DNA from: a virus
Taxonomy: Duplodnaviria; Heunggongvirae; Uroviricota; Caudoviricetes
Direction: 5' to 3' (one strand)
DNA length: 39,548 nt
IMG/VR virus record: IMGVR_UViG_2519899835_000008
Positions within the stretch are counted from its first letter, which is position 1, and each line of letters opens with the position of its first letter. A program made the position numbers and the translations under genes. Shown one piece after another: positions 574-39,548 of the stretch. Below the pieces are notes generated by a model, which had not been told where the DNA came from, made no database searches, and was given only the letters and a program-made list of their open reading frames with translations.

Positions 574-640
574 TGATACCGATTTGCATTTCATTTGATA
601 CCGCTGAAAAACGCCGATACGCAACTTATTTGATACTAAA
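572..640. repeat. Prophage right-end repeats: three direct copies of TTTGATAC(C/T), candidate transposase-binding sites
   Basis: TTTGATACCG at 572-581 and 594-603, TTTGATACTA at 629-638; 22 bp spacing between the first two; a GAAAAACGC motif lies between them; located at the extreme end next to mom. Confidence 0.45.
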
Positions 641-682
641 TCGGCGCTTTTCTTTTGGGTTTTAGAATGAGTTTTTAAGCGC

Positions 683-1420
683 TCATTCACTCTCTTTCAA
701 ACCAGTTTTAACTGTTTGGGGTTTTGGGTAAGGCTGGACTTTGAATAGCTTTATGTTGAGGCGTTTTCTGGCCCTCTTGTTCAGAAACCGGATGTAACGA
801 AACTGTCGGAACTTATGAACACTGGCTCTGTCGATATTAGCCCTCAGATGTTCACCTCGTTGTCCGCCTCGTTTAATGGCATTCCTGCAAATCTCGTGAT
901 ACCACTCGCCATCAAGTTCATAGAATGTTGATTCATGGCTGCCTACATAATCAAAATTGCTTGCCTGATACACGACACCAAGACAGCCACAACGCTCATC
1001 TGCAAACGACTGAACCCACTGTACCTGCGGATAAAGCTGTCTGATAAGTTTGAGTGCGTAACTGATGGCCCTTGATTCGGAGTTTCTCGGCATACAGTCA
1101 TGCAGCCATAACCGGTTAAGCTCCATATATTCGCGGTTCTGCGTACCGGTTACGACGCGCGCTCCACTGTTTGGATTAAGGGCATAACCCCATTGCATTA
1201 CGCCAACCAGCTCTCGTTCTGAAAATATACCCAGATGAAGGTAGGAGTTATTTACGAAACGGTGGCTGTAATGTTTATTGACGATGACCAGTCGGGCCAG
1301 CCAGCAACTTATTGTCTCAACCCGTAACTCACGGGAGCCATAACCGACGATATTGTCGTTATAGAGAATAAGTTCAGGCGTGCTGATGATACGGGATGTA
1401 ACTTGTTTTCTGTTCCCCAC
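683..1420 (-). CDS. mom: Mom-like DNA modification protein (adenine modification, acyltransferase fold)
   Basis: 245-aa ORF is the last gene before the prophage end and is overlapped at its 5' end by a Com-like zinc-ribbon gene, the canonical Mu com-mom arrangement. Exact start codon uncertain. Confidence 0.75.
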
Positions 1421-1574
1421 GACAGGATTTCCTTGTGTATGTGGGGTGCTCTGTGGCGCTCGGAGATGTGATTTGATTGAGGGTTTTACAGCGCGGACAT
1501 TTTACTTCCAGATAACTGAAACTGGCCCGTGCCAGTAACTTGTTGCAGTGTCGGCACCGTATGTTTCGATACAT
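1374..1574 (-). CDS. com: Com-like zinc-ribbon translational activator of mom
   Basis: 66-aa [17 protein letters not shown]...KCPRCK with a CxxC...CxxC pattern closely resembling Mu Com; AGGAGG ribosome-binding site upstream; overlaps the mom start. Confidence 0.8.
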
Positions 1575-1800
1575 GGCCGCATAACCTCCTGCTTTGTTGA
1601 TGATATCTTTCTCGCCTAATCGATCGACAAAAACGATCGATTCGATGTGTTTAATTGATACAACAAATAGATTGAAAAGTCATCAACAATGATTCAGGGA
1701 GGTGATTATTTACTAAAAGAAAACGAAGACTTAGGGTGTGAAAACGATCATAAAATGATCATTTTATTGACTTTTTATCCAGTGAAGGTAGGATCGCGCG
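1575..1800. promoter_or_regulatory. com/mom regulatory region with clustered GATC (Dam) sites and palindromes
   Basis: GATC at 1622, 1635, 1746, 1757 and 1792 (five in ~175 bp); an 18-bp perfect palindrome ATAAAATGATCATTTTAT at 1750-1767; lies upstream of com on the minus strand. Confidence 0.5.
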
Positions 1801-38578: not shown

Positions 38579-38579
38579 A

Positions 38580-38828
38580 TCATGACGCCTTTCTCATATA
38601 GCTCTTAACCTGGTATCTACTGGGCCAGATTTCTTCAGGCGATACCCCAAGAGCATCAGCAATTATTTGCTGATACGGGCGGCAAGGAGTACGTAATACG
38701 CTTTTCAGCGAGTCCCTGCTGTAACCAGCCTTTAAAGATAAAGAGCGCAGTGATAAGCCAGCCATGTGTAGGCGCGCCTTGATGATTTCTGGCGGCCAAT
38801 CGTGATCTGAAACTTCTCTTCTACTCAT
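38580..38828 (-). CDS. ner: Ner-like DNA-binding regulator
   Basis: 82-aa ORF with LSLRSLSLKAGYSRDSLKSVL...QQIIADALGVSPEEIWPSRY matching the Mu Ner pattern; AGAGGAAG ribosome-binding site. Confidence 0.85.
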   Translation of the reverse strand: MSRREVSDHDWPPEIIKARLHMAGLSLRSLSLKAGYSRDSLKSVLRTPCRPYQQIIADALGVSPEEIWPSRYQVKSYMRKAS

Positions 38829-39017
38829 ACTTCCTCTATCCTAAAAAGTTACCCGCGCGGATATTCGTACGGATATCTGTACGGGTAAATAATGCATCAC
38901 TAAAAATACCAAATCAAGGTATTTTTGGTATTTTCCTTGTTTTTTCTTTTATCCTTATTTTTCAATTGGATACACAGAAAGAAACCTTTCATTAGAAAAG
39001 CACCAAGAGGTATCTTT
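38829..39017. promoter_or_regulatory. Divergent early promoter / operator region between ner and repressor
   Basis: Near-palindrome CGTACGGATATCTGTACG (38866-38883) flanked by TTACCCG / CGGGTAA; 11-bp inverted repeat AAAATACCAAA / TTTGGTATTTT (38903-38934); AT-rich. Confidence 0.55.
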
Positions 39018-39548
39018 ATGTCGCAGGGAAAAGAACCTGTTATTGAACGTATTGGGATGCTTACAAAACGCTATCCTTCAAGAAGTGCAGCTGCCAGAGC
39101 GTGGGGAATTAATATCAACACATTAAACAGCTATTTCAAGGGAGGGCAAACACAACCAGCCCCAAGAGAAAGCATTCTTATACGAATTTCTAAAAGTGAA
39201 GGTGTTAGTCTTGAGTGGCTTAAAGAGGGCAAGGGAGAATCACCAAAAGACATTGGTATTTCTGGTGATTTTGGTTGTTCTGGTGATAAGGGAGATCAGC
39301 TTACACAGATGCTTTCATTCCTCACGAAAGACGAACGAGAACAACTAACCAATCTCCTTGCTCGCAAAGGTGTAGAGACTGTTCTGACACTACTGGATAA
39401 AGAAAACCAGGATTTATTACAACTAGAGGGCAGGAAGCGCCTGGCTGCTTTGATGATTGTGGATATGCCTGACGATAGTGTCAGAGAGATTTTGGAAAAA
39501 ACCGAGACAAGTAGGCAATCAAATCCGGTAGAATCTAAAGCGGGTTAG
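39018..39548 (+). CDS. Mu c-type lysogeny repressor
   Basis: Divergent from ner; start at ATG 39018 with AAGAGG ribosome-binding site; N-terminal DNA-binding-like region; ORF ends exactly at window end with TAG. Confidence 0.7.
   Translation: MSQGKEPVIERIGMLTKRYPSRSAAARAWGININTLNSYFKGGQTQPAPRESILIRISKSEGVSLEWLKEGKGESPKDIGISGDFGCSGDKGDQLTQMLSFLTKDEREQLTNLLARKGVETVLTLLDKENQDLLQLEGRKRLAALMIVDMPDDSVREILEKTETSRQSNPVESKAG

Follow-up and report, generated by a model that had tools for sequence, protein, structure and literature searches.

A near-complete Sp18-type Mu-like prophage in elfC of E. coli and the orientation mosaic in its tail-fibre segment

The window analysed here, a 39,548-nucleotide stretch recorded as a viral genome (IMGVR_UViG_2519899835_000008), consists of 554 bp of E. 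coli elfC followed by a minus-strand Mu-like prophage of the Sp18 type. Taken as a whole, the evidence makes it very probable that this is a near-complete prophage with intact genes, inserted in elfC, and that the apparent decay of its tail-fibre region is a consensus of two orientations of one invertible segment. The initial annotation had described the tail-fibre variable region as degenerate; its apparent breakage is instead an orientation mosaic, and both true states encode intact fibres. The prophage is of an ordinary, already known kind, and its insertion is already annotated in RefSeq sister genomes. The prophage call itself adds little, as the Sp18 type is well documented in pathogenic E. 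coli and occurs in ~4% of complete genomes; the behaviour of the invertible segment and the geometry of the ends are of wider interest.

Extent, insertion site and termini

1–554, plus strand: host DNA, 5′ part of the fimbrial usher gene elfC (ycbS), split by the prophage (RefSeq annotation of a sister genome; empty K-12 site GGGGCTAACAGT)
555–682, minus strand: mom-side prophage end, equivalent to attR (junction mapping; repeat search)

Comparison with the empty K-12 site places the first prophage base at 555, at the junction between GGGGCTAA and TATAGCG, and bases 551–554 (CTAA) are one copy of a 4-bp target duplication. The prophage is 39,244 bp long and extends from 555 to ~39,798. Its last ~250 bp, past position 39548, form the repressor-side end with three end-repeat copies, which is visible only in the near-identical sister genome L001 (41549–41798). 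A complete Mu-like prophage starting at 574 had been proposed: its presence, its Mu-like character and the intactness of its genes hold, whereas the start moves to 555 and "complete" was too strong because the repressor-side end lies outside the window. Outside 5852–7132, only 2 bases differ between the window and NCCP15648. At least 80% of the early half is present in 227 of 5426 complete E. coli genomes, at various sites.

The phage-strand terminus at the mom side reads ...GCGCTATA-3′. Repeats of CGGTATCAAA lie on the minus strand at 572–581 and 594–603, with a degenerate third copy near 631–640 (2 mismatches, read by eye), and on the plus strand of the repressor side at L001 positions 41625, 41677 and 41772. 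The search for this repeat returned 11 matches where 2.8 were expected, and these concentrate at the two prophage ends, inverted relative to each other; the repeats are predicted transposase-binding sites, several per end and inverted as in Mu-like phages. A perfect 4-bp target duplication flanks the prophage in 7/7 insertions, at seven different loci; shifting the boundaries to allow a 5-bp duplication gave no fit at any of them. On the mom side all seven end in ...TATA-3′, and the repressor-side terminus is 5′-TG in four and 5′-TA in three, the present lineage having 5′-TA. The canonical 5′-TG...CA-3′ termini of Mu-like phages are not found here. That the repressor-side TA is a disabling mutation was rejected, since TA-ended copies occur at three different loci; two other prophages carry this terminus at other sites, which makes it compatible with transposition.

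Gene content

29819–35481, minus strand: early/semi-essential region with GemA (gp16), gp12, gp11 and Gam homologues and conserved phage ORFs (tblastn to Mu; profile matches)
35484–36416, minus strand: B, MuB-type AAA+ transposition ATPase, 310 aa (49% identity to MuB; Pfam AAA_22 and Phage-MuB_C)
36488–38578, minus strand: A, DDE transposase, 696 aa (Pfam HTH_Tnp_Mu_1 and Mu-transpos_C; alignments to MuA and retroviral integrases)
38580–38828, minus strand: Ner-type early regulator, 82 aa (43% identity to Mu Ner; Pfam HTH_35)
38829–39017, no strand: divergent early regulatory region with a palindrome at 38899–38929
39018–39548, plus strand: lysogeny repressor, 176 aa (PHROG 3037 'transcriptional repressor', full length, E=9e-62)

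Gene order follows that of Mu throughout, from ner/A/B to gin/com/mom, with collinear tblastn matches for 39 Mu proteins. All 54 annotated CDSs (RefSeq) outside the invertible segment are full-length and free of internal stops or frameshifts, and Mom, Com, the invertase, the transposase, the MuB-type ATPase and Mor score above Pfam cut-offs. Collinear matches, Pfam domains and open CDSs alike bear out the earlier statement that the transposition, lysis, morphogenesis and com/mom genes are full-length and without frameshifts. The genes are intact, and the present copy may be competent for transposition. The alignment to Mu and D108 that had been proposed as a check was run and is uninformative at the DNA level: only 616 bp of Mu, D108 and SfMu DNA align, at 72% (megablast, first 25 kb), and the right reference is Sp18. 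By nucleotide similarity, the prophage would be placed outside the genus Muvirus.

A DDE transposase gene next to that of a MuB-type AAA+ activator marks the element as a Mu-like phage. In the transposase, an integrase-like core lies between N-terminal DNA-binding and C-terminal domains of the Mu type, and alignment to MuA and retroviral integrases gives D309, D375 and E415 as the DDE triad. The palindrome between the repressor and ner is a candidate operator; a promoter scan of this c-ner region returned no consensus promoter. The repressor has no tblastn match to Mu c, and the end of its stop codon is the last base of the window.

7680–15487, minus strand: baseplate and tail genes, homologues of gp48, gp47, gp46, gp45, P, N, tape measure and gp41 (35–57% identity to Mu proteins, Mu order; intact CDSs)
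15484–21092, minus strand: tail tube, tail sheath, gp38–gp35 homologues, major head protein T and protease/scaffold I (tblastn to Mu proteins; intact CDSs)
21093–21269, no strand: G-I intergenic region at the genome centre, the position of Mu's strong gyrase site (weak 27-nt, 85% match to Mu DNA beside that site)
21270–21743, minus strand: G homologue, virion morphogenesis (54% identity)
21784–21863, plus strand: tRNA-like element with an aberrant anticodon arm (Rfam tRNA, 31 bits against a gathering threshold of 29 in a short scan; fold)
21865–27566, minus strand: head and packaging genes, homologues of F (gp30), portal (gp29), large terminase (gp28), an 82-aa ORF, gp27 and gp26 (57–72% identity; intact)
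27559–29254, minus strand: lysis block (tblastn to Mu proteins; Pfam; annotation)
29326–29748, minus strand: single Mor/C-family late activator (40% identity to Mu C, 27% to Mor; Pfam)

The tRNA-like element sits in a 121-nt insert that is absent from Mu. It is annotated as 'tRNA-OTHER' in the RefSeq-annotated relatives L001, L004, L005, L011, L012 and L013, but not in the Sakai Sp18 record; ARAGORN called no tRNA, and an Rfam scan of the whole window at the gathering threshold returned nothing. NCBIfam gave no useful matches for Mom, Com, the repressor, the terminase or the portal. The lysis genes were read with the Mu lysis model (PMC9239132) and comprise a DUF2730 releasin (gp25 homologue), a TraR/DksA zinc-finger protein, the Rz1-like o-spanin LysC, a 142-aa ORF and a gp22-type endolysin. 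The 142-aa ORF, which has no Pfam match, is a putative i-spanin by its position and its overlap with LysC.

683–1420, minus strand: mom, Mom-family DNA adenine modification enzyme, 245 aa (76% identity to Mu Mom; Pfam PF25680)
1374–1574, minus strand: com, zinc-ribbon translational activator of mom (Pfam Zn_ribbon_Com, E=2e-12, 46.8 bits; CxxC...CxxC kept)
1622–1795, no strand: five-GATC cluster upstream of com/mom (GATC at 1622, 1635, 1746, 1757 and 1792)
1689–1988, plus strand: small accessory ORF, a partial pseudogene in RefSeq (annotation)
2150–2350, minus strand: small accessory ORF (annotation)
2426–2680, minus strand: DUF826 ORF (annotation; Pfam)
2716–2898, minus strand: DUF1378 ORF (annotation; Pfam)
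3043–5097, minus strand: cargo gene, 684 aa, with a SASA (sialate O-acetylesterase) domain and a C-terminal DUF6645 (Pfam SASA E=1.5e-13, DUF6645 E=4e-67)

At the right end, a full-length Mom gene is preceded by an overlapping com, and together they make up a Com-Mom module. The match of Mom to PF25680 covers positions 1–202 of 202 (E=2.4e-77, 259.6 bits against a cut-off of 27.1), its GTG start aligns with the GTG of Mu, and com overlaps the mom start by 47 nt, as in Mu. The five GATC sites upstream fall within 174 bp, against 2.9 per kb window-wide, and by analogy with Mu the cluster is a candidate control region of the Dam/OxyR type; it is the one hint in the sequence of Dam/OxyR- and C-dependent regulation. 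The cargo protein resembles the NanS-p esterases of Stx/lambdoid phages.

By analogy with Mu, the repressor would silence the divergent early operon, which would supply Ner, the DDE transposase A and its AAA+ partner B; A and B would then drive transpositional replication of the genome, starting at its ends with their repeated A-binding sites. The single Mor/C-type activator would turn on the late functions, namely lysis, head, contractile tail and com-mom. Lysis would be holin-less and proceed through a SAR-type endolysin, the releasin and spanins, and the com-mom product would modify adenines, giving N6-(1-acetamido)adenine, and so protect the DNA from restriction.

The invertible tail-fibre segment

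5183–5755, minus strand: Gin-type serine DNA invertase, 190 aa (74% identity to Mu Gin; Pfam Resolvase and HTH_7)
5821–5846, no strand: invertase-proximal gix-like crossover site TTCCTGAAAACCTCGGTTTACGGGAA (exact match to the AAACCNNGGTTT core)
5852–7132, no strand: invertible host-range segment, 1281 nt (per-base comparison with sister-genome orientations)
7133–7680, minus strand: constant N-terminal part of tail fibre gene S, ~180 aa (47% identity to Mu S residues 1–191)
7137–7162, no strand: distal gix-like site TTCCCGTAAACCGACGTTATCGATAA (central dinucleotide compatible with the proximal site; inverted orientation)

A serine invertase, whose catalytic Ser lies in the N-terminal IRVSTNDQ motif, inverted crossover sites and the presence of both orientations in nature together constitute a Gin/Hin-type switch. 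On the proximal side the change of orientation falls within 5833–5851; on the distal side the crossover lies within 7133–7151. The constant part of S gives the same match in Mu, D108 and SfMu. The Gin-type invertase flips the 1.3-kb segment between the two gix-like sites, and each flip joins the constant part of S to one of two alternative receptor-binding tips.

As the window is given, the module looks broken: S is cut to 248 aa, the assembly gene is reduced to a 67-aa ORF, and the alternative tip has lost the frame and stops at 6003. These features would fit a truly decayed tail-fibre module in a prophage that transposes and packages but yields non-adsorbing particles. Flipping the entire segment relative to L001 does not account for the sequence, the inverted identity (68%) being equal to the collinear identity; after this fit failed, labelling site by site revealed the mosaic. 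When the segment is compared with its counterpart in a sister genome, each of the 1281 bases agrees with at least one orientation (462 match both, 405 the forward only and 414 the inverted only), and the 'neither' class is empty, compared with ~752 sites in shuffles. The labels switch between forward and inverted 349 times along the segment; the outer arms are purely 'inverted', and 5967 to 7009 is a base-by-base mix of orientations.

Sister genomes hold the segment in clean form. It is an exact inversion in NCCP 13983 (819/819 informative sites), inverted in FORC_043 (1349/1350 sites), forward in FORC_069, FORC_029 and NCCP15648, and in a hybrid state in NCCP 13905. Because clonal sister strains that share the insertion carry it forward, inverted or as a hybrid, each in clean form, flipping in vivo is shown directly. 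A further switch point, located inside the segment at 5934–5956 with its mirror, is seen both in the NCCP 13905 hybrid and in the limits of the mosaic; it may be the work of the invertase or of homologous recombination. One reconstructed state encodes a 293-aa S; the other encodes a 296-aa S′ and, after it, the 173-aa Caudo_TAP assembly protein. The real content of the segment is a pair of alternative tips for the fibre, together with a single gene for its assembly.

Genuine decay is extremely improbable against these data: every differing base is the inverted-copy base, indels are absent, substitutions show a flat spectrum and the labels switch 349 times, a pattern that is neither mutational nor attainable by recombination; moreover, sister genomes whose DNA is otherwise identical carry the module clean and intact, both forward and inverted. 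A natural divergent allele was likewise rejected, as indels are absent over the 1281 nt, the spectrum is flat and no site is left unexplained. The mosaic segment is absent from every complete RefSeq E. coli genome, and an exact search of species-representative genomes with a mosaic 40-mer gave no match. The window at 5852–7132 is a chimeric consensus of two orientations, not decay. The consensus was presumably built from a culture that held both orientations, with the assembler as the probable route to an in-register mosaic. Since the fibre region is a mixed-orientation consensus, no genetic defect can be recognised in the prophage. When a segment inverts actively, its two orientations can enter an assembly as a base-by-base blend that mimics gene decay, and such a blend would mislabel an intact prophage as fibre-defective.

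The prophage might nevertheless be tidy but grounded in this clone, silent and vertically inherited, through subtle defects such as missense changes, changes in the operator or end sites, or a chaperone lacking in one fibre state. It occupies the identical site in six sister genomes and its early half is matched at one place per genome, so there is no sign of recent transposition in the clone. Its repressor-side terminus is TA where Sp18 has CA, and two tips share only one assembly-protein gene; in the forward state this sole gene points away from the late transcript, which might give fibre-defective particles. We consider such grounding unlikely, as the TA terminus recurs in two other prophages at different sites, the 54 CDSs are without stops or frameshifts, the invertase is demonstrably active, both orientations being present in sister genomes, and the related Sp18 releases particles (PMC2669165). 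The earlier description of the prophage as inducible was overstated because the related Sp18 is released spontaneously yet is not mitomycin-inducible (PMC2669165).

Comparison with known systems

The closest known relative is Sp18 of E. coli O157:H7 Sakai, to which 96.6% of the prophage length aligns at ~89% weighted identity. The published work on Sp18 predicted an intact prophage, found its DNA packaged, reportedly without circularisation, observed Mu-like particles and pointed out an invertible host-specificity region (PMC2669165). Gene content and order, end sequences and the 4-bp duplication are shared with Sp18 and Sp18-like STEC phages; a short invertible fibre segment with one assembly gene, the esterase/DUF1378/DUF826 cargo and com-mom are also common to the present prophage and Sp18. 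The mom-side ends are identical, and the repressor-side terminus differs by one base. The insertion site is elfC here and sorM in Sp18, and the fibre tips and the cargo esterase are only ~68–78% identical to those of Sp18 (~70% for the esterase).

With Mu and D108 the prophage shares c/ner/A/B, Gam, GemA, a Mor/C-type activator, the gp22 endolysin and gp25 releasin, head and contractile-tail genes, S with an invertible segment, Gin and com-mom, at protein identities to Mu of 24% to 76%. By contrast, the transposase is only ~21–24% identical to that of Mu, the repressor is unrelated to Mu's, and one Mor/C paralogue is present where Mu has two. The invertible segment measures 1.3 kb with one Caudo_TAP chaperone, compared with 3 kb with U and U′ in Mu, and the fibres are ~295 aa long compared with 504 aa. 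Extra cargo lies between gin and com, the tRNA-like insert lies between F and G, the duplication is 4 bp and not 5 bp, and the termini are TA and not CA. Like the other Gin/Cin/Hin/Pin switches (Mu G and P1 C segments), the present one has 26-bp gix-like inverted sites in the fibre gene and alternative fibre C-termini; its segment is much shorter than the G and C segments and has an inner switch point in addition.

The steady 4-bp duplication and the TA termini suggest a transpososome geometry unlike that of Mu, a lead that bears on target spacing by DDE enzymes and on their tolerance of non-CA ends. Sp18-type phages may form a mechanistically distinct Mu-like branch, characterised by a 4-bp target cut, TA at the transferred 3′ ends, a 1.3-kb segment with two nested switch points, more than two fibre variants and a single chaperone; we advance this proposal tentatively and rate its chances slightly below even. 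In the searchable literature we found no statement on the duplication length of Sp18-type phages and no description of such traits in them; it cites only 5- and 6-bp duplications and regards TA ends as exceptional; duplications of 5 or 6 bp are those reported for known transposable phages (PMC8705779). Non-canonical TA termini are held in common with B3-type and Leptospira prophages that have TA-TA ends (PMC8705779), although these prophages have 6-bp duplications and a Tn552/B3-type transposase, whereas the present prophage combines a 4-bp duplication with a Mu-domain transposase.

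Insertion site and Mu-like gene content

Judged by its sequence, the element is a Mu-like prophage that is intact and carries Mom; the proposal of the initial annotation to this effect is borne out by the collinearity of the Mu homologues and by the state of the reading frames. Gene content and order, the transposase catalytic residues, and the end repeats could be established directly. In tblastn searches against the window, 39 of the 54 annotated Mu proteins match collinearly, in the order ner, A, and B; Gam, gp11, gp12, and GemA; one Mor/C-type activator; endolysin and gp25 to gp30; G, I, T, and gp35 to gp48; the constant part of S; and gin, com, and mom, with identities from 24% (A) to 76% (Mom). 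All 54 RefSeq-annotated coding sequences outside the invertible tail-fibre segment are open and full-length, and their lengths equal those in independent relatives. The resolvase-type invertase and the MuB-type AAA+ and C-terminal domains are confirmed by Pfam. In A, the Mu N-terminal DNA-binding and Mu transposase C-terminal domains flank a weak integrase-like core, and alignments to MuA and retroviral integrases identify the catalytic triad as D309, D375, and E415. The lysis genes comprise a gp22-type endolysin, a DUF2730 gp25 homologue, and two spanins, consistent with the current holin-less lysis model of Mu (PMC9239132). The repressor, unrelated to Mu c, belongs over its full length to a family of phage repressors. 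The repeat CGGTATCAAA is present at both prophage ends in inverted orientation, twice within the window and three times at the opposite end, as seen in L001, the locus of the near-identical sister genome NCCP15648. The prediction of a Mom system is likewise upheld by a full-length Mom domain (Pfam E=2.4e-77) and a Com zinc ribbon confirmed by Pfam; the GTG start of mom aligns with that of Mu, and com and mom overlap in both phages.

The prophage interrupts a host gene:

1-554, 5′ portion of elfC (ycbS), a fimbrial usher gene of E. coli

The prophage is real, but its proposed start at 574 and its end at the window end required correction. Junctions were set by comparison with the uninterrupted K-12 elfC, whose empty site reads GGGGCTAACAGT, whereas the lysogen reads GGGGCTAA, followed by the prophage (TATAGCG...GGTTATA) and then CTAACAGT. 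By this comparison, the prophage is 39,244 bp long, starts at 555, and ends approximately 250 bp past the last base of the window; the window closes on the repressor stop codon, and the repressor-side end lies outside it. Nearly all genes are on the minus strand. The same insertion is found in six Korean clinical E. coli genomes matching the window, at one site across all six, and a single place per genome matches the early half. Outside 5852-7132, the window differs from NCCP15648 at two bases only, with one missense change each in the esterase cargo gene and gp27. The elfC usher of the ELF (laminin-binding) fimbrial operon is split by the prophage (window 1-554 and L001 41799-43849), and ELF fimbriae are presumably inactivated in the clone by this split.

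Inversion of the tail-fibre module

As given in the window, S is cut short at 248 aa, only a 67-aa fragment of the assembly gene is open, and the alternative tip is not in frame; the module had been annotated as degenerate. However, it is functional-looking and actively inverting, on the grounds of the per-base match of the segment to its two orientations, the states in sister genomes, and two intact reconstructed states. The window equals L001 up to 5851 and again from 7133; between them, 414 of 1281 positions differ, indels are absent, and the substitution spectrum is flat. Every base is either that of L001 (forward) or that of the reverse-complemented L001 segment (inverted): 462 sites match both orientations, 405 forward only, 414 inverted only, and 0 neither, whereas approximately 752 sites are unexplained in shuffled controls. 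The outer arms are purely inverted, and from 5967 to 7009 the labels alternate nearly at random (349 runs vs. 393 expected). Mutation and recombination were rejected as the source, since neither gives an in-register, base-by-base blend with the reverse complement. We infer that the mosaic is the expected look of a consensus from molecules in both orientations, and such an assembly artefact in an inverting segment calls for caution.

The biology is settled by the sister genomes, in which the segment inverts in vivo.

State of the invertible segment in sister genomes
NCCP 13983: exact inversion (819/819 informative sites)
FORC_043: inverted (1349/1350 bases)
FORC_069, FORC_029, NCCP15648: forward
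NCCP 13905: hybrid, interior forward and outer arms inverted

The outer switch falls within the core common to two sites with compatible central dinucleotides, which we take to resemble the gix sites of Mu:

5821-5846, gix-like site
7137-7162, gix-like site

A second, inner switch point is apparent, as the interior of NCCP 13905 is opposite to its outer arms and the mosaic of the window is limited to the interior. It lies in the identical stretch 5934-5956 and its mirror 7028-7050, with invertase-mediated and homologous recombination both being candidates.

In the reconstructed forward state, S is intact (293 aa) and the lone assembly gene is convergent; in the inverted state, S′ is intact (296 aa) and is followed by a co-directional 173-aa Caudo_TAP assembly protein. 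The constant region of S (~190 aa) shares 47-49% identity with S of Mu, D108, and SfMu, and the fibre tip is ~40% like P2-type tips. Only one assembly gene accompanies the two tips (window 6246-6767; true sequence, L001 8246-8767). Only in the inverted state does it run in the direction of the fibre gene, so the forward state may lack chaperone expression.

Target duplication and termini

Sp18-type phages, named after the Mu-like prophage of O157:H7 Sakai, insert at many loci with target duplication. The insertion ends were compared in the window (551-558), L001 (41795-41803), and the related loci L004, L005, L011, L012, L013, and L014, and a perfect 4-bp duplication was found in seven of seven independent insertions.

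Insertion loci: elfC, a lateral flagellar gene, a sulfatase gene, gspM, an rhs region, a diguanylate cyclase gene, and sorM (Sakai)
Duplications: CTAA, GGGG, TATA, CCCG, CACG, CGTA, and TTTA

A 5-bp duplication was ruled out, as no boundary shift yields 5 bp in the seven insertions. The mom-side terminus is ...TATA-3′ in all seven, and the opposite terminus is 5′-TG in four and 5′-TA in three. The TA end of this lineage is not a defect, because TA-ended copies occupy three different loci. Transposable phages are described with duplications of 5 bp (Mu) or 6 bp (B3-type) and with TG...CA ends, TA being exceptional (PMC8705779). No statement on the duplication length or TA ends of Sp18-type phages was found in the searchable literature, and the 4-bp/TA signature is a modest, testable lead.

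Accessory elements and comparison with Sp18 and Mu

Further features of the window are as follows:

1622-1795, GATC cluster upstream of com/mom (five sites within 174 bp, two close pairs among them, vs. 2.9 per kb overall)
1689-1988, plus strand, ORF flagged as a partial pseudogene
2150-5097, minus strand, cargo block between gin and com (SASA/DUF6645 protein, DUF1378 and DUF826 ORFs)
21784-21863, plus strand, tRNA-like element
26433-26681, minus strand, 82-aa ORF between the gp27 and large-terminase homologues
29326-29748, minus strand, single Mor/C-family activator
38899-38929, palindrome with 12-bp arms (ACTAAAAATACC...GGTATTTTTGGT) in the repressor-ner intergenic region

By analogy, the GATC cluster seems to recall the region through which Dam and OxyR control mom in Mu. 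The 684-aa cargo protein carries a sialate O-acetylesterase (SASA) domain and DUF6645; such a cargo set is usual in Stx/lambdoid prophages, and its identity to the Sp18 counterpart is just ~70%. The tRNA-like element scores 31 bits with the Rfam tRNA model (gathering threshold, 29) in a short-range scan only, and ARAGORN was negative for it. It has an aberrant anticodon arm, lies on the strand opposite to the late genes, and is part of a 121-nt insert, absent from Mu, that lies between the homologues of F and G; RefSeq labels it 'tRNA-OTHER' in L001, L004, L005, L011, L012, and L013, and the label is absent from the Sakai Sp18 record. At its C-terminus, the 82-aa ORF resembles the last 30 residues of Mu gp27 (57% identity), suggesting a partial duplication. 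The palindrome, whose GGTAT core is similar to the end repeats, is a candidate operator. At the centre of the genome, the intergenic region between G and I (21093-21269) contains a 27-nt, 85% match to Mu DNA ~30 nt from the strong gyrase site of Mu and may be the equivalent central gyrase site.

By analogy with Mu, the repressor would keep the early operon silent, and derepression would lead to replicative transposition by A and B. The single Mor/C-type activator would then start expression of the genes for lysis, head, and tail and of com-mom; Com would enable translation of Mom, which would modify adenines and thereby block restriction; and the invertase would alternate the fibre tip and hence the host range.

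The whole-genome alignment with Mu and D108 suggested in the initial annotation is uninformative, because the DNA alignment with Mu, D108, or SfMu covers just 616 bp, at 72%. The suitable reference is Sp18, to which 96.6% of the prophage aligns at ~89% identity and whose end sequences are nearly identical. Sp18 is predicted to be intact, its invertible host-specificity region differs from that of Mu, its DNA is efficiently packaged, and Mu-like contractile particles occur in untreated cultures, without mitomycin induction (PMC2669165). This behaviour supports, by analogy, probable spontaneous release rather than SOS induction. Sp18-like phages reside at variable sites, some within Stx phages (PMC10132054, PMC7430833), and at least 80% of the early half is present in 227 of 5426 complete E. 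coli genomes; novelty is therefore low, the prophage belonging to an already described, widespread family. At least three further repressor types, of 194, 203, and 181 aa, occur in relatives, accompanied by corresponding changes in ner and in the length of the transposase, and these variants look like heteroimmune types within the Sp18 family:

L004 39686-40270, L011 36660-37271, L012 38433-38978, and L013 38470-39015, variant repressor loci

Compared with Mu, the cargo block, the 82-aa ORF, and the tRNA-like element are extra. Furthermore, Mu has two Mor/C genes (Mor, the middle activator, and C, the late activator), whereas the one Mor/C-family activator here implies a transcriptional cascade shorter than that of Mu.
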